From an uncultured Chloroflexia bacterium (GTDB lineage: Bacteria; Chloroflexota; Anaerolineae; Anaerolineales; UBA11858), in NCBI GenBank assembly GCA_963827805.1, contig CAWHCC010000007.1, positions 553,664 through 617,663 on the forward strand: a stretch of DNA of 64,000 nucleotides, written 5' to 3'. Made by a program: the position numbers and the translations under genes. Below, piece by piece: positions 23,551 to 53,153 of this stretch. The notes under the pieces were generated by a model, which searched no databases, was not told where the DNA came from, and saw only the letters and a list, made by a program, of their open reading frames with translations. Positions within the stretch are counted from its first letter, which is position 1. Each line of letters starts with the position of its first letter.

Positions 23551-23940
23551 AAAATTTCTCCTTGATGGTTTTCAAACTCGATTGTAGAGAAACTCAATAT
23601 TAGAGTTGTTCACAAATAATTTGGTAAAAGCTTTGGACAAGGATTTACACAGATTTTTTGGTCAAAAGAAAAAAGAATGCGGGTTTACACCTGCACGATT
23701 ACTTCAGGGACAAATTTCCGTGAACACCTGGGTCTGTTTTTCTGACCCTAATTTGGGGGGAAGTATATCTTTTTTAGATTGCTCATTTATTACAATGACC
23801 ATTTTACCTGAAATTGCATTATGTAAATCAAAGGGGCGAGGTATCAAATTTCCCAGCCTACTTGACAAAATAGAACTTTTGTTCTAATATATTTATGTAG
23901 AGCATGTTGATTTAGGTTTTTGCCGATAAGGAGGCAAATC

Positions 23941-24693
23941 ATGTTGAATGGAAATTTTTCTAGTTTTTCTAGACATCTACGCTTACAACGCGGTTTTTTG
24001 TTCGGCGTATTAATTGTAGGCGCATTGTTGGCTTTTGAGCTTTTCAACTATTCCACCACGGATTTCGCCCTTACGGATTTGCTGGGTGATCTTACATTTT
24101 TGGGGATTACTTGGGCAACGATATTGTCCGTAGCATTCTGTGGCATCGATTTTGCCGGCGTCGCCCGACTTTTTACACCCGAACAGGGACGCGATGAGCC
24201 CACAGAGGTGTGGTACTTGTTTGGGGCCTGGATGTTGGCTGCCACCATGAATGCTATGCTGACTTGGTGGGGTGTTTCTATTGCTTTGCTCAATCATCAA
24301 AGTTTGGGAACGGCGGTTGTAGAGCGGGCTACCCTAATCAAGATTGTACCAATTTTTGTTGCGGTGATGGTTTGGTTGACCCGTGTACTAATTATTGGAA
24401 CGCTATCTGTTGCCGGTGATCGCATTTTCAGTCAGGCGGAGATTCGAAAAACAGTTGCCCGATCTCCAAAGAGAACTTATTCCAAACAACGGGCCTCGAC
24501 ATCCCGCCCCGCAAACGGTCGCTCAATTGGTGTTTCCCGAGGTGTAAGGGCCTCTGAAGCTGGAGCCACATCTTATCGCCCTGCTCCCAAACCTGAACCC
24601 ACTTATGAGACAGATTATGCCAACCAAGAACCAATTTATACGCCCGTCTCATTTAGCGGAAACCGTAACAACAATCGGCAGGCACGTTTCTAG
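23941..24693 (+). CDS. hypothetical membrane protein with a disordered basic C-terminal tail
   Basis: ATG at 23941 with AAGGAGG 6 nt upstream. About 4 hydrophobic segments. Confidence 0.6.
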   Translation: MLNGNFSSFSRHLRLQRGFLFGVLIVGALLAFELFNYSTTDFALTDLLGDLTFLGITWATILSVAFCGIDFAGVARLFTPEQGRDEPTEVWYLFGAWMLAATMNAMLTWWGVSIALLNHQSLGTAVVERATLIKIVPIFVAVMVWLTRVLIIGTLSVAGDRIFSQAEIRKTVARSPKRTYSKQRASTSRPANGRSIGVSRGVRASEAGATSYRPAPKPEPTYETDYANQEPIYTPVSFSGNRNNNRQARF

Positions 24694-24809: not shown

Positions 24810-26150
24810 TCAGGCTGTCTCCAGGTAGCGTTCAATTTCCCAATCGGAAACTCGGGTGCGATGCTCGTCGATTTCAGCCCACTTCGCTCTTTTGAAGGCA
24901 GTGTATATTTCAGAACCCAAGGCGGTTTTGATCACATCATCTTTTTCAACTTCTCGCATAGCTTCAGCCAAAGAACCAGGTAACTCCGCGATACCATATT
25001 CGTCCCGTTCTTCCACCGTCATATTGTATACATTCACGTTATTGAGTGGGGCAGGGCAATCCATCTTGTTATCAATTCCGTCCAGGCCGACAGCCAGCAT
25101 TGCAGCAATCGCCAGGTATGGATTAGCAGATGGATCGGGACAGCGCAGTTCGGCGCGTACAGCTTTATCGCGTCCGGGCATATAACGCGGAATACGGATA
25201 AGGGCCGAACGGTTGGTCTGCGCCCATCCCACATAGACGGGGGCCTCATAACCGGGAACCAAACGTTTATAAGAGTTGACCGTTGGAGCAACCACAGCAG
25301 CCAACCCTCGAGCGTGGTTAAGTTGTCCAGCAATAAAGCCATAGGCCATCTCAGACAGATGAAATTCATCCTCAGCATTGTAGAACAGGTTATTGCCGTC
25401 CTGATCGAAAAGTGATTGGTGGCAATGCATCCCTGATCCGTTGATGCCGAAGATTGGCTTCGGCATGAAGGATGCAATCAAACCGTGTTTGGCGGCGATG
25501 GCCTTGACGGTGTATTTCATGGTCAGGATATTATCGGCTGCTTCAACGGCATTGGTATAACGAAAATCGATTTCGTGCTGCCCAAGTGCAACTTCATGGT
25601 GTCCCATCTCAATCTGCAAACCCATCGTCGCCAGGGCATCCATCAATTCGGCTCGTACCCGTAAGGCTTCATCGGAGGCAGAAAAATCGAAATAGCCGCC
25701 CACATCATGGGGAACGGGATGGATATTATCTGGCCCATTCCGCTTGAAGAGGAAAAATTCGGGCTCGGGACCAATATTGAGGGTCCAGCCGCGGGACTCG
25801 ATTTGTGTCAGGATACGTTTCAGGGTCCCACGCGGATCCCCAGGAAAGGGATTTCCATCCGGTTGAAAAATATCACAGAAAACACGTCCCCGCCGGCGTT
25901 CAATGGAACTCCAGGGGAGGACAGAGTAGGTGTTTTTGTCGATTACCAAACGCATATCGCTTTCCTGGATGCGAGCAAACCCCTGTACAGAGGAGCCATC
26001 AAACCAGATGCCATCTTCGAGGGCAATTTCAAGGCGGTGGACAGGTATATCCACACTCTTGACCGCGCCAGTGACATCGGTGAATTGGAGTGAAATGAAT
26101 TTTACTCCGTCGGCTTTAACTTGAGCGAGTAAACTCTTTGTATCCATCAT
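24810..26150 (-). CDS. glnA: glutamine synthetase type I
   Basis: GS-I sequence throughout, including the ATP-site region FMPKPIFGINGSGMHCHQSL. The start is placed at ATGATG (26150/26147), which is preceded by GGAGG. The tracked TTG start at 26204 is unlikely. Confidence 0.9.
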   Translation of the reverse strand: MMDTKSLLAQVKADGVKFISLQFTDVTGAVKSVDIPVHRLEIALEDGIWFDGSSVQGFARIQESDMRLVIDKNTYSVLPWSSIERRRGRVFCDIFQPDGNPFPGDPRGTLKRILTQIESRGWTLNIGPEPEFFLFKRNGPDNIHPVPHDVGGYFDFSASDEALRVRAELMDALATMGLQIEMGHHEVALGQHEIDFRYTNAVEAADNILTMKYTVKAIAAKHGLIASFMPKPIFGINGSGMHCHQSLFDQDGNNLFYNAEDEFHLSEMAYGFIAGQLNHARGLAAVVAPTVNSYKRLVPGYEAPVYVGWAQTNRSALIRIPRYMPGRDKAVRAELRCPDPSANPYLAIAAMLAVGLDGIDNKMDCPAPLNNVNVYNMTVEERDEYGIAELPGSLAEAMREVEKDDVIKTALGSEIYTAFKRAKWAEIDEHRTRVSDWEIERYLETA

Positions 26151-26260
26151 AGCCTCCATAGCTGATTGTTTCACAGTGTGTTGTCTCAAACTAATATGTT
26201 TCAAGAGTTACTGTAAAACCTAAATAAATGTCAGGATAATTTTGTTTTCTGACACTCGAT

Positions 26261-26290
26261 TAAATAAAATAAGCACGCCTGGGCGTGCCC
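26261..26290 (-). terminator. intrinsic terminator inside the glnA leader
   Basis: Minus strand: GCACGC-CCAG-GCGUGC followed by UUAUUUUAUUU, about 110 nt upstream of the glnA start. Confidence 0.5.
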
Positions 26291-26621
26291 TTCGCGATTT
26301 ATTACATTCGCGGCAGCCCCTTCCACTAATAACCAGCTTTTGCTTGTATATAAAAAAAGCTGTATCACTATAGGTGTCTTGTATCTTACGTTACCGTAAG
26401 GTTTTCGACACTGCAAGAATTTTTCTCGCGCCTACTTTTAGGAAGGGAGAAACGAAGCCCGTGACCAGGCTTCAGAGGCATCCGCTGATCGATCCGATTT
26501 TCCAACCTGATCTCTGATCAGGCTGTTAGCGCTCCCCGCGAAGGGAGGAGCCTTTACCTCGTAACCCCGGCGTACCGGGGCTCAGTCGCTAAATCTCCGT
26601 ATTTAGTTGTCTAATCAATTG
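26291..26621 (-). promoter_or_regulatory. highly structured 5' leader RNA of glnA (unclassified candidate riboswitch or attenuator)
   Basis: A GC-rich island at 26441-26600 sits in AT-rich DNA. Perfect hairpins lie at 26565-26580, 26532-26547, 26506-26522, 26454-26473, 26385-26400 and 26335-26362. The loops read UACG and GUAA only on the minus strand. Confidence 0.35.
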
Positions 26622-26627
26622 GGCGCA

Positions 26628-26656
26628 ATACTACCAGATGCAAGTTATGATGTCAA
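26628..26656 (-). promoter_or_regulatory. sigma70-type promoter for the glnA leader
   Basis: Minus strand: TTGACA (26656-26651), a 17-nt spacer, then TAGTAT (26633-26628). Confidence 0.45.
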
Positions 26657-26708
26657 GAGAAAATAATCTGTTCTGGAAGTGGCAAATAATTCGTTATTGA
26701 TGGTATGC

Positions 26709-26774
26709 AGGACTGGCGGTCCTCAGGACTAAAAATTTACTCACGAGCTGAAAGTTTCCAGGACTGCCAGTCCT
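26709..26774. promoter_or_regulatory. pair of AGGACT-based palindromes (operator-like)
   Basis: AGGACTGGCGGTCCT (26709-26723), an extra AGGACT half-site (26725-26730) and AGGACTGCCAGTCCT (26760-26774). The palindrome centres are 51 bp apart. Confidence 0.4.
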
Positions 26775-27187
26775 AAAGTGCGTAACATGAGTTCGTTACA
26801 AACTACCTAAATAACCAGGGCAAATCATCTTGTGGTTAGTTCTTTTAAAAAGAGCTGTTTTGATGACAAGTTTGGACGAATGCCAGATATTTTTGCTCGC
26901 ATTGTTTTCAACTCCTCGTAATTGAAATCCTCTGCAGCATGCGCTTAATGTATTTGTAAGGTATTTCTTAAGGAAATTGCTAATGGGTTTGATGCTGAGC
27001 GCGATATAATCTAATTATATCAACTCACCCCGCACAATTAAATCGCGAAGACATATCTTTTGAAGAAGATGTACCCCAGGAATCCATTGAGGATTTAAAG
27101 CAAATTCTGGATGCAGTTTCTTCACTTGAGCAGATTGAATTATCCCAGGAAGAAATCAATGAGATTGTAAGTCAATTATCGCGCGCG

Positions 27188-29509
27188 ATGCCGGCTGGCG
27201 ATATACCGGGTGTAGTCAAGAGTGGCTTGGCCCGGCTCCGGGAAAGGCATATTCAAGATGATGCTGCTGACCGAGATATCGAGTGGTTGACTGGACGTCT
27301 TAAACCTTTTGTTGACCGAGCCAAATATCTGGGGGTTTTCGTGGGCCCTGCTTCTGCAATTTGGGTGTACCAAAACCTTTTGAAATTGGCCGGCAAGAAT
27401 TCTGAGGATGCTTTTCCCAATGGTCTTTGGCAATTCTATTGCGAATACGCTTTACGAGAGGATACTGCTCGCCATACCAATGAGAGCTGTGGTTTTGACA
27501 CCATTTTAAATGTTCACGACATCAATTTAAATCGAGTTGACAGGGCTACAGCGTGGGTGATGGCTGCTGTTCATTGCTTGCACCAATATGATGATTTGAT
27601 AGAGAATGAGTGGCGCGAGCGTATGTATACGCATTTGTTACGAGAAGTAACAGCCGAAATTACTGACGCAGCGCGCTACAATCGCCTCTATCAGGCATGG
27701 CGAAATCATCTGCCTTATCATCGTGATCATGATGCTGGTTTTGATGATACATACCCAATATATCGGCGCAGGAAGTTTGACGAATTTCTTGCGGAGGCAA
27801 CCAAAAACCTAGCGGGCAATTATATGAAAGCTTGGAGTGAACGAGTTCAAGCCGCGGAGGAAACCGACCTGCCCCTTTACCAGCGACAAATGACGATTTT
27901 GTCCCATTTGATTCCTGGACCTCATCGAGAGGACCGCCGTTTACTGGCGATAGAAAAAGCAAAAATTGCAGTAATTTACCAAGGGGTCTATTATATATTT
28001 CCAATATGTGACGAAAAGGGTAATCCAATTGATGTTGAACACGTTCGCAGCATGATCGCGGCAATCTATGCTTCTCCGGTAAAAGGCAATCCTTTCCAAT
28101 TAACATATTTTCCGGGAATGCGTAGAGCATCATTGTCAGAATTTCTGAAGAAAACAAAAAATCCAGAAATTGATAAGTTAGATATTCTAGATGAGGTTCC
28201 AATTGTCATCAATTTTGATCGGCGGGATCCGGAACTGCCTCTAGCGGCGATCCGGCGTTCAGAACGCGGGATTGGATCTCATCCTCTAACACTTATCGAT
28301 ACAGGGAAAACAATGGTTTTCGATCAGTCACATATTTACTTTGATGGTGCTTGGGGAGCAGCCCTGGCAGAGATAATGACAAACGAGGCACTTTCTTGGG
28401 GTGTTTATCTCTATACCCTAAAAAATGCTGAACCAGACGCTGATCCGCCGCAATCAATGAGCATATCGTTATCTGATGATGATCTGAAGCTGATTCAAAA
28501 AACTCCACGAGTTGAATTTGAAGCCTGGGCAAAATCAGCAAATGTGAAGATCAAAGCTATTCTAGCGTTGCGCAAGATGTTCAAGCGTCGCAGCGATTTG
28601 ATCCAGCTCACGGTAAATGATTTATTAGTGCTTTATCGAGGAATTCATACGGCACTCTACCAACCCTCCAATGAAATTGTGGATGAGTTGAGTGAGTATA
28701 TTTTAAAATTAGCAGATGATGAGGTAGCTTTATCTGCTCTGGAAGCCCTGAGAAAGAGCTGGGAGACTCAACGGATTAACCCCTCCATATTGATCCCGGT
28801 TGATGCCAGTGAACAATCTCCACGTGAACGCGTCCACCCTTTGGGATTTGAGGTTCCTCTTTCAGATTTGAATTTACTAGACCTCCATCAAAGAGTGGTT
28901 GAAGCTCTAAATGATTATTGGAATGCCTCAGGGGATCGACACGAAACTTATCAGAAATTTGACCAGCTCCAGCGTGAATATCTAACGACCATAGCGGCAT
29001 TTGGGGGTGTTTTTACGAAAGCTAAAACTATCGCGGTTACCGGAGAGAGTGCCAGTCTGGGCACCCTCAAATTGTTGGCTCATTTACCCGAACCCGTTCA
29101 GCATTGGTTAGATTCAATTCTTACAGAAGTGGACGTACTAAATGATTTAACCAAAGGGAATGAAGTTTTTTCAAATGTTGGGGCGGTGGTACCCACCAGC
29201 ACTTTGACGCGCTTCCTAAGTGCAAAAGACGACAATGAAAAGAAAAATTTGGTTTGGGGGGTTCTCACTGACGCAGAAGGCACTATGCGTATCACACTGA
29301 GAGATTTCCGGCCGCATGTGGGTTTTTTCGTTGAAACGGGCTATCAAGAATTAGCGAATAAAATTACCCAAGATTATTTAGATAGTTTTGTTGAAGGATT
29401 GAATCAATTTGTTACTGACTTGCGACGGGTTACTGTTGCCAGCCGGGAAACTCGCCTTGCTTTTATTCAAGATATTCGTAAACTGAACGAGGCAGGAAAC
29501 ACCGAATGA
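27188..29509 (+). CDS. large conserved-looking hypothetical protein (773 aa as tracked; the N-terminus may lie further upstream)
   Basis: Long uninterrupted ORF with no motif I recognise. The same frame is open and reads like coding sequence (acidic, helical) back to 26999 but has no start codon there. An ATG at 26983 with AAGGA 8 nt upstream sits in the -1 frame, so a +1 frameshift near 27004 would give about 841 aa. Confidence 0.7.
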   Translation: MPAGDIPGVVKSGLARLRERHIQDDAADRDIEWLTGRLKPFVDRAKYLGVFVGPASAIWVYQNLLKLAGKNSEDAFPNGLWQFYCEYALREDTARHTNESCGFDTILNVHDINLNRVDRATAWVMAAVHCLHQYDDLIENEWRERMYTHLLREVTAEITDAARYNRLYQAWRNHLPYHRDHDAGFDDTYPIYRRRKFDEFLAEATKNLAGNYMKAWSERVQAAEETDLPLYQRQMTILSHLIPGPHREDRRLLAIEKAKIAVIYQGVYYIFPICDEKGNPIDVEHVRSMIAAIYASPVKGNPFQLTYFPGMRRASLSEFLKKTKNPEIDKLDILDEVPIVINFDRRDPELPLAAIRRSERGIGSHPLTLIDTGKTMVFDQSHIYFDGAWGAALAEIMTNEALSWGVYLYTLKNAEPDADPPQSMSISLSDDDLKLIQKTPRVEFEAWAKSANVKIKAILALRKMFKRRSDLIQLTVNDLLVLYRGIHTALYQPSNEIVDELSEYILKLADDEVALSALEALRKSWETQRINPSILIPVDASEQSPRERVHPLGFEVPLSDLNLLDLHQRVVEALNDYWNASGDRHETYQKFDQLQREYLTTIAAFGGVFTKAKTIAVTGESASLGTLKLLAHLPEPVQHWLDSILTEVDVLNDLTKGNEVFSNVGAVVPTSTLTRFLSAKDDNEKKNLVWGVLTDAEGTMRITLRDFRPHVGFFVETGYQELANKITQDYLDSFVEGLNQFVTDLRRVTVASRETRLAFIQDIRKLNEAGNTE

Positions 29510-30553
29510 CCGAATTACCATCAGATCCGCAACAAATCCGATTTGCAAATTACCGTTTAGATTATTTGATTGGCAGCGGTGGATTTGCGCGCGTTTACAA
29601 AGGTTGGGATGGTGAATCTGACACCCCCCTGGCAATAAAAATTGTTGATGCCAATTTCTCCGAGTCAGAATTTGCGTTGGCTACAGCTTTTTTGGAACAT
29701 ACCAGCACGCTAACATCCTGGCGTCATAAAAACATCATCAAAATTCATCGGGCTGGTTTCGATGATAATTACCTTTATTTGGTAATGGAGTATATCGATG
29801 GTACAGATTTAGGGGATGTTATTGAGCGCTATGGAGAGGATGGAGAGTTAATTCCCCACGATGATGTGATTCAGGTAGCCCGTTCGGTAGCCTTGGCCCT
29901 CGATTATGCACACCGTCGCAAAGTGCTTCATCTTGATATTAAGCCAAGTAATATTTTAATGGAGCGGAATGGCCGTATAATTTTGACTGATTTTAATCTG
30001 CCGATTGGGCGGAAAAAAGAAGAAGCCGGGGTTATATTTGGCAGCGCTCACTATATGGCTCCCGAACAATCCCAGGGAGCTGAAAAAGCTACTGAACTTT
30101 CCGACTTGTATTCTTTGGGTGTAATTCTCTATGAGATGCTGACAGGGACCGTGCCCTTTGATGATCCTTCAGCGGTTACCGTGGCTTTGCAGCATATAAA
30201 TTTAGCTCCTCCACCACCACGCAAGATTTAACCCCAATCTCAATCCCTCAACAGAAGTAGTCCTGTTGAAAGCACTCAGTAAAAATCCTAATGAACGCTA
30301 TCCAACAGGCGAACATTTGGTCAATGCCTTAGAGGATGCTTTGGCATTCCAGTTAACGACACCGGCTGATATTCGTTCTTTGCCGCCAGCACCTGCCGGT
30401 GTAGATATGCAGGTGCGACGTTTATCTCAAAAAGCGATTGTCGAACGGGCTATTACTCGCATGGAAGTACCTTCGAAAGTGACCGAACGAGATAAAATCA
30501 CCCGACAAACATTGGAGCGGGCCATCAACCTCTTGGCGAACTGGCAGAGTTGA
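29506..30553 (+). pseudogene. soluble Hanks-type Ser/Thr protein kinase; +1 frameshift inside the catalytic domain
   Basis: GSGGFARVY, AIKIV, HLDIKPSNIL, DFN, HYMAPE. ORF 29506-30231 stops at PPPPRKI and the kinase continues as NPNLNPSTEVVLLKALSKNPNERY in ORF 30266-30553. Deleting one T from the T3 run at 30227-30229 joins them. The start overlaps the upstream stop (ATGA). Confidence 0.8.
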
Positions 30554-40291: not shown

Positions 40292-40393
40292 TTGAGGCAC
40301 CCACTAACTTGTGCTAGAAACTGGTGATTCCTGCAGATATATCCTGCCTGAAAACTCGGCAACGCGATTCTTCCGCGCTATATAAATGTAGAT

Positions 40394-40422
40394 AAAAAGA
40401 CCCGCTAATCATCAACGGGTCT
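40394..40422 (-). terminator. intrinsic terminator after tRNA copy 1
   Basis: Minus strand: GACCCG ... CGGGUC hairpin followed by U5. Confidence 0.6.
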
Positions 40423-40427
40423 TCCTG

Positions 40428-40499
40428 TGGCGAGGGAGGGACTTGAACCCTCAACCTACGGCTTATGAGTTCGGTGCTCTGCCATTGAGCTACCTCGCC
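40428..40499 (-). tRNA. tRNA with CAU anticodon (Met/Ile2-like), copy inside the att repeat; anticodon stem poorly paired
   Basis: 72 nt. Acceptor stem GGCGAGG/CCUCGCC, D arm GCUC-AAUGGCA-GAGC, T arm GAGGG-UUCAAGU-CCCUC, loop CUCAUAA. The anticodon stem CCGAA/GCCGU has only 2 Watson-Crick pairs. CCA is not encoded. No promoter is visible upstream of this copy. Confidence 0.6.
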
Positions 40500-47518: not shown

Positions 47519-49216
47519 CTATCCCCGTTGACAAGTTCTCTGTTTCCAATACTGCCGCTTTTTTGCCACTAGCATATTGAGACGGCGTTCGCGTTCATAC
47601 TGGTGTAACCTAATTCTTCGTTCTGTCTTACCCAACGTCCCCAGCTGCGCGGCAATCCGTTCGAGTTCGTCTTCTGTTTTTGGTATGGCGTAGTATTCAC
47701 CTTCAGCACTGCCCACCATGCCGAATTCTCGCAGACGTTTAAAAGCCCGCGACACACTGCCGGGGTGTTGACTGGTGGCTCTTGCTATGGCTCTAATTGA
47801 CTTTTCGTTGTTATTCAGTAAATAGCAATAAATACGTTCAGCCACCTTACCCAGCCCTGCGAATACGTCTGTGTGTTCGTATCCTGGGTGTTGCCTAATC
47901 GGGACACTACATACTAAGGGGGGATTAATGTCCTGATTGGGAAACACGTTTACGTTCTCAGTAAATGCAAAAATACCTGCTGGGGTAGTTGTTTTCTTCG
48001 AAGACGGCACACGGTAGTAGAGTTTGGAGTCAACCAATCGGCCTAAAGCAATGGACGCCGTAGAACGGCCAATATTGGCAAGTTCAGCCACTTCACGCGC
48101 AGACGCCCGAAATTGACGGCCTTCCAAGCGCGCACGATGAACACATGCAGCAAAGACCGCGCGGTCAGTTTGGGCAGTTCTGCCGTGAGTGCGCCAGTCA
48201 TGCAATTCCAAGAAGGCAGCAGCAGTGAGTAACATATCTGTAACGTTTCGTAACGGTTTCTGAACGTTTTGTTCGTCTTTGCCATAGTCGCGTGCGGGTT
48301 GATTGTCGTCTTGGTTGTAGGCCCAATTCAGAACGTCAGTAACGGCCTTTTGACTTTCAGGCGGATTACAGATTGCATTCATGGATAGAATCAGCGTTTC
48401 AGCCAGGTCATAGTCAAAATGATTGGCAGCCATATCACGAGCAACGGCCACAAAAGCAGCATTCCGATTGCCGTCAGAAGTTCCTAATGCTAAATACATA
48501 CGATTGCGCCGGGATAGCTTCTCACAATGGGGGGGCAGTCCGTACAATTCCGGTTCGTGGTATTGACCTTTTGCCAGCTTGACGCCGAATCGTTCTACCT
48601 GGTTTATGCTGACTGTGGGCACAACATCGCCAGGGGGGACAATCCAACGGTAGACCACCCCTTGTGGGTGAATACTCGGAGGCAGCACCGAATAGCCAGC
48701 ACTCCCCCGAATACCTAAACCGGGAAGTACACCGTTTTTCTCTTTGATATTCGCAGCAATGCCCTCGGCCAAGCGCATCATATAACCACCCCCGCGAAAA
48801 CTTTCATACTGCCAGTAGTTGACGCCGGTATCATCCAACATGCCTTGAAGTTGGTTGTAGGTCCGGTGACTATCACAATCGAAAATAAACAGATTCCCGC
48901 TGGTTTTGCCAAGTATTACGCCGATATTAGCGCCCTCAAATAGCGCATCAATTTGGTGGTCGCGTGGTAGGCAGCCTAGATGATTGCGTCGGTAACATTC
49001 GGGACCACATACGTGAAGACGGGAAGTGTAGAATGGTCTTTGCAAGTACGGTGGTTTTTTGTCGGCAAAAGACGGGTCAAACTTAATCGCTTCGTTCGGC
49101 TTTGGCAGTGGCAAAACGTTCAATCCTAGCACGTGTAAATGTTTGGCCGTGCTGACAGAAGTCAGTAATTCCGGTGTGACTTCGGTTATCAATTGGTTTT
49201 GGACAGTCGTCAGCAT
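47519..49216 (-). CDS. bifunctional primase-polymerase (archaeo-eukaryotic primase fold) fused to C-terminal winged-helix domains
   Basis: DxD motif (LFIFDCDS), GGGYMMRL, and SVLPPSIHPQG (SxH). The C-terminal half has two MarR-like wHTH segments. Confidence 0.7.
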   Translation of the reverse strand: MLTTVQNQLITEVTPELLTSVSTAKHLHVLGLNVLPLPKPNEAIKFDPSFADKKPPYLQRPFYTSRLHVCGPECYRRNHLGCLPRDHQIDALFEGANIGVILGKTSGNLFIFDCDSHRTYNQLQGMLDDTGVNYWQYESFRGGGYMMRLAEGIAANIKEKNGVLPGLGIRGSAGYSVLPPSIHPQGVVYRWIVPPGDVVPTVSINQVERFGVKLAKGQYHEPELYGLPPHCEKLSRRNRMYLALGTSDGNRNAAFVAVARDMAANHFDYDLAETLILSMNAICNPPESQKAVTDVLNWAYNQDDNQPARDYGKDEQNVQKPLRNVTDMLLTAAAFLELHDWRTHGRTAQTDRAVFAACVHRARLEGRQFRASAREVAELANIGRSTASIALGRLVDSKLYYRVPSSKKTTTPAGIFAFTENVNVFPNQDINPPLVCSVPIRQHPGYEHTDVFAGLGKVAERIYCYLLNNNEKSIRAIARATSQHPGSVSRAFKRLREFGMVGSAEGEYYAIPKTEDELERIAAQLGTLGKTERRIRLHQYERERRLNMLVAKKRQYWKQRTCQRG

Positions 49217-53044: not shown

Positions 53045-53153
53045 GATAAAAAGACCCGCTAATCATCAACGGGTCTTCCTGTGGCGAGGGAGGGACTTGA
53101 ACCCTCAACCTACGGCTTATGAGTTCGGTGCTCTGCCATTGAGCTACCTCGCC
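53045..53153. repeat. 109-bp direct repeat, copy 2 (att site)
   Basis: Identical to 40391-40499. Confidence 0.9.
53082..53153 (-). tRNA. tRNA with CAU anticodon, promoter-proximal (probably expressed) copy
   Basis: Same 72-nt sequence as 40428-40499. A sigma70-type promoter lies about 35 nt upstream. Confidence 0.6.

Follow-up and report, generated by a model that had tools for sequence, protein, structure and literature searches.

The DNA analysed here, hereafter the window, is a stretch of 64,000 nucleotides (nt) on contig CAWHCC010000007.1 of an uncultured Chloroflexia bacterium (assembly GCA_963827805.1). On its minus strand it carries the glutamine synthetase (GS) gene glnA, preceded by a long structured leader. 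All positions are window coordinates, and both the leader and glnA are read on the minus strand, along which coordinates descend from 5' to 3'. The leader, spanning about 26621-26261 (minus strand), is likely to be a self-cleaving ribozyme-riboswitch of the glmS family, belonging to an Anaerolineae subtype termed N-type below, equipped with a terminator/antiterminator platform and acting in cis on glnA. A note made from the sequence alone, referred to as the original prediction, had described a promoter, a structured leader and an intrinsic terminator here and proposed an unclassified nitrogen riboswitch or attenuator. The transcription unit is laid out as follows.

26656-26628, minus strand: sigma-70-type promoter, with TTGACA (26656-26651), a 17-nt spacer with a TG extension and TAGTAT (26633-26628)
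26290-26271, minus strand, with its U tract at 26270-26261: intrinsic terminator, GGGCACGC-CCAG-GCGUGCUU + AUUUUAUUUA
26148-26260, minus strand: window-specific spacer of about 110 nt, which holds a second weak hairpin and a U run
24810-26147, minus strand: glnA, glutamine synthetase type I, 445 amino acids (aa), with Pfam matches to Gln-synt_C (9.2e-129) and Gln-synt_N (2.4e-26)

The order of promoter, structured domain, terminator and glnA, as well as the choice of the minus strand, agrees with the original prediction. TTGACA-17-TAGTAT is the top promoter-like site in 25900-27300, with 10/12 positions matched, and gives a predicted transcription start at about 26621. In relatives, the conserved leader is preceded at 15-40 nt by an equivalent promoter or immediately adjoins a 6S RNA gene. 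A GC-rich island in an AT-rich spacer had also been noticed, and the GC content is indeed 0.57-0.60 across 26450-26600 vs 0.32-0.40 in the flanks. Every hairpin listed at that time is present on the minus strand, namely at 26564-26581 (UACG loop), 26532-26547, 26506-26522, 26454-26473, 26385-26400 (GUAA loop) and 26334-26362. The minimum free energy of the 476-nt leader 26150-26625 (minus strand) is -168.8 kcal/mol, compared with -125.6 +/- 6.5 kcal/mol for dinucleotide shuffles (z = -6.6), of which 0/100 were as good. The terminator is the sole terminator-like site found in 25900-27300. The ATG of glnA at 26147 follows its U tract at a distance of about 113 nt, close to the 110 nt first given, and has a Shine-Dalgarno (SD) sequence, GGAGG, at 26157-26153. 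The encoded protein is 62-86% identical to GlnA of Anaerolineales metagenome-assembled genomes (MAGs). A protein-coding reading of the leader region was rejected, as both strands hold short open reading frames (ORFs) only and conservation tracks base-pairing, not codons. The spacer at 26148-26260 is missing from most relatives, and a scan of it for promoter-like sites returned none besides one overlapping the glnA start codon. It contains the hairpin GUGUCAG-N14-CUGACAU followed by UUUAUUU (26228-26255, minus strand), likewise absent from most relatives, which may be a weak second terminator or the remnant of an insertion.

At gathering scores, an Rfam scan of the whole window returned two tRNAs and nothing else. 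In E-value mode (E <= 10), the glmS ribozyme (RF00234) was the sole minus-strand match in 26000-27200, the plus strand giving a spurious microRNA. RF00234 aligns end to end (model positions 1-167) over 26601-26362 of the minus strand, with insertions of about 60 nt and about 55 nt relative to the model that account for the low score of the window, 15.1 bits. The 60-nt excess stems from two hairpins in the P2 loop; active-looking relatives carry the 60-nt and 55-nt insertions as well. The strings matched to RF00234 comprise UUUAGCGACUGA with the cleavage site A↓GCG (the arrow marks the scissile bond), AGCG.CUGA, the P1 hairpin, ACGAGG, GCGGAUGCCUC and GAAAACC-hairpin(GGUAAC)-AUACAA, that is, AAAA-hairpin-ACAA. 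Higher scores were obtained for homologues: the glnA-upstream locus L012 passes the Rfam gathering score of 37 with 46.2 bits, and the N-type loci L154, L096, L107, L181 and L153 reach 37.2-39.6 bits. Among 20 loci searched in E-value mode, the gathering score was passed by 6/10 glmS-associated and 5/10 N-type copies (4 glnA, 1 like glutamate synthase, GOGAT), and glmS was the only Rfam family matched, 6S RNA hits upstream of the element aside. The window is tied to glmS-scoring homologues by nhmmer with E-values of 1e-20 to 1e-32. Sequence and structure place the RNA in the lineage of the glmS ribozyme, its P2.2 periphery being remodelled, and an annotation based on Rfam would give some N-type copies the glmS label already.

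Given a full-length, though sub-threshold, alignment in the window and above-threshold homologues, the leader represents a divergent glmS family member and not an unclassified class. The Rfam check suggested in the original prediction thus bore out that none of the classes then considered, which did not include glmS, fits, but not that the RNA is unclassified. Its four "local hairpins" are in fact P1, two lineage-specific P2-loop insertions (Ia and Ib) and P3, and the hairpin at 26385-26400 is P4.1. The glutamine, T-box, M-box, ZTP, glycine and yybP families were rejected, none matching at E <= 10; for the glutamine riboswitch (glnA RNA, RF01739), there was no hit at this threshold in 26000-27200 on either strand. 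A hidden glmS nearby was rejected as well: the window has four ORFs about as long as GlmS (565-616 aa), and these encode AFOR, DUF6909, Prim-Pol and an AMP-binding enzyme. The parts assigned to the ribozyme and to the sequence that follows it are listed below.

26591-26621, minus strand: 5' leader, which cleavage would release; it contains ACAACUAAAUA, a conserved block (26610-26600), and GGAGA as P0 strand (26598-26594)
Between A-1 (26590) and G1 (26589), minus strand: predicted self-cleavage site, within AGCGAC, aligned to A↓GCGCC of RF00234
26564-26581, minus strand: P1 hairpin, GCCCCGG-UACG-CCGGGGU, from the RF00234 alignment and the fold
26557-26562, minus strand: active-site strand ACGAGG, comprising the P2.1 5' strand and the catalytic G, preceded by U
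26476-26553, minus strand: P2 region, in which AGGC (26553-26550) pairs with GCCU (26479-26476)
26547-26532 and 26522-26506, minus strand: lineage-specific insertion hairpins Ia and Ib, inside the P2 loop
26501-26477, minus strand: core strand AAAAUCGGAUCGAUCAGCGGAUGCC, which gives the 3' strands of P2.1 and P2.2
26454-26473, minus strand: P3 hairpin, GAAGCC-UGGUCAC-GGGCUUC, whose loop GUCAC pairs with GUGAU at 26368-26364 (P3.1 pseudoknot)
26441-26453, minus strand: pyrimidine tract GUUUCUCCCUUCC, whose 5' half pairs with the leader (P0) and whose 3' half pairs with GGAAGGGG (P5)
26364-26429, minus strand: P4 domain, aligned to RF00234 positions 109-167
26429-26413, minus strand: optional hairpin, followed by P4, in which GUGUC (26411-26407) pairs with GACAC (26378-26374)
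26400-26385, minus strand: P4.1, CUUACG-GUAA-CGUAAG, flanked by the internal-loop purines GAAAACC and AUACAA (26406-26379)
26334-26362, minus strand: variable hairpin CAGCUUUU...AAAAGCUG, between the ribozyme and P5
26312-26324, minus strand: GGAAGGGGCUGCC, containing GGAAGGGG (26324-26317, P5 3' strand) and GGGGCUGCC (26320-26312, antiterminator strand)
26312-26293, minus strand: small hairpin CGCGA..UCGCG, directly before the terminator

Conservation of these parts was followed through a GlnA protein search with one genome per species, which gave 80 loci, mostly from Anaerolineales/Anaerolineae MAGs, the closest being 86% identical. With the window leader as query, nhmmer detected a homologous element on the glnA strand in 37/80 loci, with E-values down to 9e-32. 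An alignment of 72 non-redundant N-type elements (A1), reaching from 28 nt upstream of the cleavage site through the U tract, has 35 invariant columns, including AAAATCG and, except for one position kept in at least 90% of rows, TCAGCGGATGCC; the window keeps 35/35 of them. RNAalifold on A1 recovers P1, P2, both insertion hairpins, P3, P4.1 and the terminator, 36/43 pairs showing compensatory changes. Pairs were also counted on a hand-specified A1 structure that includes the pseudoknots, using as controls a 3' partner slid by 1-3 columns and 500 shuffles. In this structure 91.9% of cells are paired, vs 38-47% with the slid partner, and double changes occur at 45 pairs in 741 cells; the observed values were reached in 0/500 shuffles. 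Conservation and covariation of the hairpins in glnA-upstream relatives, which the original prediction had named as a check, are thus found as compensatory changes in more than 70 non-redundant relatives.

The covarying core helices are P1 (4/4 scored pairs), P2, P3 (5/5), P3.1 and P4.1 (7/7), and the insertion hairpins Ia (6/6) and Ib (4/4) covary too. The terminator is kept in position and largely in sequence (GGCAyGCCC), with 8/8 pairs covarying. The P3.1 pseudoknot is 85% paired and shows strong covariation, with CG31/UA28/UG9 and GC26/AU17/GU16 at two of its pairs. P2, closed by GCGGAUGCC-CUCC, is 99.8% paired across A1. P2.1 and the first two pairs of P2.2 are invariant: CG/CG of P2.1 is present in 72/72 rows, and C2-G and G3-C of P2.2 (partner ..CAGCGG..) in 70/72 and 69/72. 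AAAATCG, whose AUCG is the cofactor-pocket strand, is invariant, ACGAGG is invariant at 5/6 positions with the sixth kept in at least 90% of rows, and the leader block ACAAyUGAAUA..GGAGAAA is conserved. A hairpin of varying sequence stands in relatives at the place of the variable hairpin of the window. The purines of the P4 loop correspond to the conserved IL4 purine stack (PMC11602151). The RNA is likely to be catalytically competent.

The periphery of P2.2 is where the N-type departs from the classical fold. The third and fourth classical pairs (C4-G, C5-G), with a bulged A6 and the G.(G7-C52) triple (PMC7125110), are not found in the window, and the triple is not conserved in the N-type. 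P2.2 can continue in the N-type only with N4 bulged and the pairs C5-G, U6-A and G7-C, which are 94% paired. Engineered P2.2 mutants of the Thermoanaerobacter tengcongensis core with a shifted bulge stay active and dependent on glucosamine-6-phosphate (GlcN6P) (PMC7125110), and the window shows the same arrangement. Because these mutants keep activity, the shifted bulge is taken as a variant feature that does not exclude the RNA from the family.

A sample derived from glnA is biased to glnA, and metagenome contigs were therefore scanned with the clade-specific core pattern AAAATCGN{5,6}TCAGCGGATGCC, blind to the downstream gene, which yielded at least 120 loci. Altogether 148 elements (the metagenome matches listed plus the genome loci) were parsed and the downstream gene on the same strand was recorded; the counts for gene classes given here and below hold among the matches listed. 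The downstream gene was glnA for 62/148 elements, glmS (with GATase and SIS domains) for 38/148, glutamate-synthase-related (PF01645 / Glu_syn_central) for 12/148 and Ada-MGMT or ABM for 15/148, several of the latter being followed by glnA; in the remainder the downstream sequence was too short or unclear. According to this gene-agnostic scan, the canonical place upstream of glmS is also used, together with GS and GOGAT-like genes.

The AAAUCG...UCAGCGGAUGCC core and the pair of hairpins inserted in the P2 loop are common to copies of both subtypes, and no element of the three gene classes departs from A-1, G1, C2 and G3 (AGCG, 26590-26587 in the window) or from ACGAGG. The glmS-associated copies read A↓GCGCA, with C4 in 32/34, A5 in 33/34 and G before ACGAGG in 33/34; they carry the leader GGGAAAG and the tract CUUUCCCUCC, and the terminator is absent in 34/38 and present in 4/38. 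The glnA-associated copies hold at position 4 G in 42, U in 10, A in 6 and C in 0 of 58, with C5 in 49/58 and invariant U6 and G7, and the residue before ACGAGG varies. Their 5' block is ACAAyUGAAUA..GGAGAAA, their tract UUUCUCCCUUCC and the sequence downstream GGAAGGGC, and a hairpin plus U-tract terminator with the conserved GGCAyGCCC is present in at least 51/62. The GOGAT-associated copies have the same terminator architecture. On these sequence features, the glnA and GOGAT copies constitute a distinct N-type, in which a non-C at position 4 would shift the P2.2 bulge. The window bears the N-type hallmarks AGCGAC, GUUUCUCCCUUCC, GGAAGGGGCUGCC and GGGCACGCCCAGGCGUGC, and is by this measure a typical N-type.

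The GOGAT-like loci (L100, L101, L102, L112, L128, L131, L171, L177, L180 and L184) hold ORFs 460-850 aa long, with N-termini reading RYHI..PAP and the Pfam domains Glu_synthase / Glu_syn_central, each with an N-type ribozyme and terminator upstream. The occurrence of the N-type before such ORFs suggests a GS-GOGAT regulon. The nitrogen connection of the original prediction holds to the extent that this subtype stands specifically before GS and GOGAT-like genes; the likely ligand, however, is GlcN6P. Since the changes lie beside the active site (C4 in 0/58 glnA copies, C and U at positions 5-6, no conserved G preceding ACGAGG) and the subtype is restricted to GS/GOGAT contexts, the same glmS-derived fold might answer another signal, such as glutamine or another amino sugar, or cleave without any cofactor. 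We consider this improbable: the residues of the pocket and of catalysis (AUCG of P2.1, ACGAGG, GCGGAUGCC and G1/C2/G3) are invariant in both subtypes and also in 23 genome-derived loci chosen independently of the core pattern, the shifted-bulge mutants of the classical ribozyme still depend on GlcN6P (PMC7125110), and several N-type copies exceed the glmS gathering score. The conserved pocket residues thus point to GlcN6P as the likely ligand, and there is little chance that the remodelled P2.2 alters it.

Around the ribozyme core, three further pairings involve the pyrimidine tract after P3 and the sequence that follows. In P0, the 12 nt 5' of the cleavage site complement the 5' half of the tract, and in the window GGAGA complements its UCUCC. 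The matched motif pairs are GGAGAAA/UUUCUCC, GGGAGAU/CUCUCCC, GGGAAAG/CUUUCCC and GGAAAA/UUUUCCC. In A1, a right-anchored column model gives P0 a pairing of only 76%, the register being offset by one between subtypes, and a test of own against permuted duplexes was used instead: own leader/tract duplexes average -9.12 kcal/mol vs -7.74 +/- 0.13 kcal/mol when permuted, with 0/5000 permutations as low. P5 is formed in the N-type by GGAAGGG and the 3' half of the tract (93.5% paired, modest covariation, 12 double-change cells). In copies lacking the terminator, before glmS or with a short glnA leader, the same half pairs with the Shine-Dalgarno sequence, for instance AUCUUCCA/UGGAGGAU in L170.

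The third pairing is an antiterminator. Its strand GGGCnGCC overlaps GGAAGGG and complements the 5' arm of the terminator, GGCAyGCCC; in the window, GGGGCUGCC pairs with GGGCACGCCC. Own duplexes average -12.5 kcal/mol vs -11.1 +/- 0.22 kcal/mol for permuted ones, 0/5000 permutations being as low, and the window duplex, at -16.0 kcal/mol, is among the strongest. In nascent folds ending before the 3' arm of the terminator, the antiterminator forms in 63/69 elements, and in 12/69 when GGAAGGG is blocked, which moves its mean energy from -14.5 to -6.8 kcal/mol. A reduced thermodynamic model places the antiterminator in 53/65 elements with the leader and in 32/65 without it, which is overall the direction expected of a switch by leader release. 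According to these models, the leader (P0), P5, the antiterminator and the terminator form a chain of mutually exclusive helices, and the conserved terminator/antiterminator pair corresponds to what defines an intrinsic-terminator attenuator. The proposal of a riboswitch- or attenuator-type leader acting in cis is thereby supported by conservation, by covariation and by this conserved pair.

Position relative to glnA also speaks for action in cis. In most relatives the U tract lies 10-25 nt from the glnA start codon, so that no space is left for a separate promoter and glnA can be reached by read-through only. A strong, sequence-conserved terminator closing the element would equally suit an independent small RNA gene that only shares synteny with 6S RNA and glnA; a 6S RNA gene lies directly upstream in 13/20 relatives, other genes stand between terminator and glnA in several genomes, and 110 nt separate the two in the window. 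Such a gene without cis regulation is nevertheless an unlikely account of the short U tract-glnA distances, of the conserved antiterminator, of the pairing between tract and glnA SD in terminator-less glnA copies, and of the recurrence of the subtype upstream of GOGAT-like genes in the gene-agnostic scan. The genes found in the element-glnA gaps of relatives were Ada/AraC-MGMT, EamA and ABM, and a glmS within these gaps was thereby rejected.

The copy in the window could, on the other hand, be a decaying relic of which only promoter and terminator still matter. Its 15.1 bits are the lowest Rfam score among the copies tested, its P2 has a mismatch, P0 is a weak 5-bp helix, the spacer is specific to the window, and its nearest relative, L001, has deleted the ribozyme. 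The retention of all 35 invariant columns of the 72-sequence alignment, intact helices and an antiterminator duplex of -16 kcal/mol make decay a poor description of this copy, whose low score is mostly a penalty for the 60-nt and 55-nt insertions common to active-looking relatives; we see a relic as a minor prospect. In L001 (2820-3000), the terminator GCACGCC-GGAG-GCGUGC + U run stands directly before glnA, the promoter is of the same type, and an unrelated leader of about 110 nt, with the long-range stem GGUUAGUUAG...CUAACUAACC, takes the place of the ribozyme. No Rfam family matched this leader at gathering score, and an Rfam scan for known riboswitches in the glnA loci without the ribozyme returned tRNA and tRNA-Sec only.

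Several observations weigh against a cis-acting N-type ribozyme-riboswitch in the window. The alignment to RF00234 is sub-threshold there (E = 0.75, gathering score 37), the gathering score being an operational threshold and no structural feature. The element precedes glnA instead of occupying the usual place in the glmS 5' untranslated region. The window copy has an A.C mismatch in P2 (AGGC/GCCU, offset by an additional C-G pair), U replacing the G of the G.(G7-C52) triple, that is, before ACGAGG where classical and glmS-associated ribozymes have G, and A4; because of these three features the ribozyme could be slow or inactive. The N-type P2.2 extension (C5-G, U6-A, G7-C) shows no covariation and P5 little, and P0 and P5 share, or compete for, 2-3 C residues only. 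Removal of the leader leaves the antiterminator of the window unchanged in the reduced model, owing to an additional G in GGAAGGGG; as the model did not shift for the window, a switch by leader release is something we infer. In some relatives an Ada/AraC-MGMT fusion, an EamA transporter or a small ABM gene intervenes between terminator and glnA, and the 110-nt spacer of the window could hide a glnA promoter. L001, the closest relative (86% GlnA identity), has lost the ribozyme and kept promoter and terminator, so the terminator can work with another leader.

GlcN6P is the product of the glutamine-dependent enzyme GlmS. In the mechanism proposed for the N-type, GlcN6P would report nitrogen and amino-sugar sufficiency, bind a pre-formed pocket and trigger cleavage between A26590 and G26589. 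Before cleavage, the leader GGAGA would hold the 5' half of the tract in P0; in this uncleaved state GGGGCUGCC would be free to pair with the 5' arm of the terminator, and the resulting antiterminator would let polymerase read into glnA. After cleavage, the leader of about 30 nt would depart and the tract could pair fully with GGAAGGGG in P5, whereupon the antiterminator would lose its G run, the terminator would form and glnA would be off. Any mRNA that does read through would carry a 5'-OH after cleavage and may on that account also be open to decay of the RNase J type known from Bacillus. Cleavage triggered by GlcN6P would repress glnA, probably by the antiterminator-to-terminator switch and/or by 5'-OH-dependent decay, and the net logic would be that high GlcN6P represses glutamine synthetase. 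This polarity makes physiological sense because GlcN6P is made from glutamine, and for the copies that sequester the SD the same polarity (high GlcN6P = off) is inferred.

A glmS-type ribozyme joined to such a switch in front of glnA suggests that, in this group of bacteria, genes of nitrogen assimilation are under the control of an amino-sugar signal. More tentatively, and with a probability that we put somewhat short of even, the N-type may be a distinct ribozyme-riboswitch subclass in which scission is read out by control helices and GlcN6P signals nitrogen status to a GS-GOGAT-GlmS regulon of Anaerolineae. Release of the leader strand (P0) would then let the tract capture GGAAGGG (P5), and terminator-less copies would sequester the SD instead. 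If true, there would be a direct link at the RNA level from the amino-sugar pool, a cell-wall precursor, to nitrogen assimilation, and a route turning RNA scission into transcription termination. Across a whole bacterial class (about 100 relatives), the glmS-type catalytic core has been duplicated onto glutamine synthetase and glutamate-synthase-like genes, with a systematic change adjoining the active site and the core wired to control helices of conventional kind, either a terminator/antiterminator or Shine-Dalgarno sequestration. Natural sequences are now available for shifted-bulge P2.2 variants, which are otherwise known from mutant libraries only. The Rfam glmS model misses many copies, including that of the window, and annotation leaves unexplained long 5' untranslated regions.

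The surroundings of the element hold some further features. Upstream of the glnA -35 hexamer, the divergent intergenic region contains the near-palindromes AGGACTGGCAGTCCT (26773-26759) and AGTCCTGAGGACCGCCAGTCCTG (26730-26708) and the inverted repeat GTAAC-N8-GTTAC (26799-26782), all on the minus strand; they are possible candidate operators, at 26708-26799, for the ribozyme-glnA promoter or for the divergent gene at 27188. The ORFs flanking the glnA unit, 27188-29509 (plus strand, 773 aa) and 23920-24693 (plus strand, 257 aa), had no Pfam match at E <= 0.001, and the former overlaps by 4 nt the downstream Ser/Thr protein kinase gene at 29506-30231. In 13/20 genome loci and several metagenome loci, the N-type ribozyme directly follows a 6S RNA gene (RF00013) of the same strand, for example in L080 (362-539), L019 (1346-1523), L144 (925-1101) and L142 (242-418). 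L022, L039 and L063 leave no space for a separate promoter between 6S RNA and ribozyme, and there the 6S RNA and the ribozyme-glnA leader may be co-transcribed and then separated by ribozyme cleavage. In the window, Rfam gave no 6S RNA hit. Elsewhere in the window, a perfect 109-nt direct repeat occurs at 40391-40499 and 53045-53153, 12,654 nt apart, each copy holding an Rfam tRNA hit of 62.6 bits (40428-40499 and 53082-53153, minus strand). Between the repeats lies a segment with a gene for a Prim-Pol/winged-helix protein at 47519-49216 (minus strand), an arrangement that resembles a mobile element inserted at a tRNA gene. With ARAGORN, the window gave no tRNA, despite the two Rfam hits.

Of the natural ribozymes known, glmS is to our knowledge the only one with a metabolite as cofactor. 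In the literature searched, no link of a glmS ribozyme to glnA, glutamate synthase, a Chloroflexi gene context or Anaerolinea was found; an earlier mention is possible, for instance in the 2011 census of glmS ribozymes. With the glmS ribozymes of Bacillus, Thermoanaerobacter and other Gram-positives (RF00234), the element of the window shares A↓GCG, ACGAGG, the CG/CG pairs of P2.1 and GCGGAUGCC, the P2/P2.2 double pseudoknot, P3 with its P3.1 loop-tail pseudoknot, the purine-rich loop of P4/P4.1 and the position in a 5' leader. Unlike them, it is followed by glnA, carries about 50 nt of extra sequence in the P2 loop as two hairpins, has the P2.2 bulge moved to position 4 and the G before ACGAGG lost, and is extended by the helices P0 and P5, after which come an antiterminator and an intrinsic terminator. 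The classical glmS ribozymes, described as regulators of glmS (PMC5473149; PMC2258182), lack an expression platform and work through RNase J1 decay (PMC5473149). The glmS-associated copies of Chloroflexi (for example L093, L110 and L139) share the P2-loop insertion, the AAAUCG...UCAGCGGAUGCC core, P0 (GGGAAAG/CUUUCCC) and the tract after P3, but differ by C4, by the G before ACGAGG, by the general lack of a terminator and by glmS downstream, the 3' half of their tract pairing with the glmS SD and not with GGAAGGG. The glutamine riboswitch (RF01739) and other nitrogen-related leaders are likewise cis-regulatory RNAs before nitrogen-assimilation genes, yet the glutamine riboswitch has another fold, size and ligand and no ribozyme core. 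As in the platforms of SAM-I and T-box leaders, antiterminator and terminator exclude each other in the window, with P5 as a putative anti-antiterminator. In contrast to both, the sensor here would be a pre-folded ribozyme with strand scission as the only ligand-dependent event, and the switch would therefore need release of the cleaved 5' leader.

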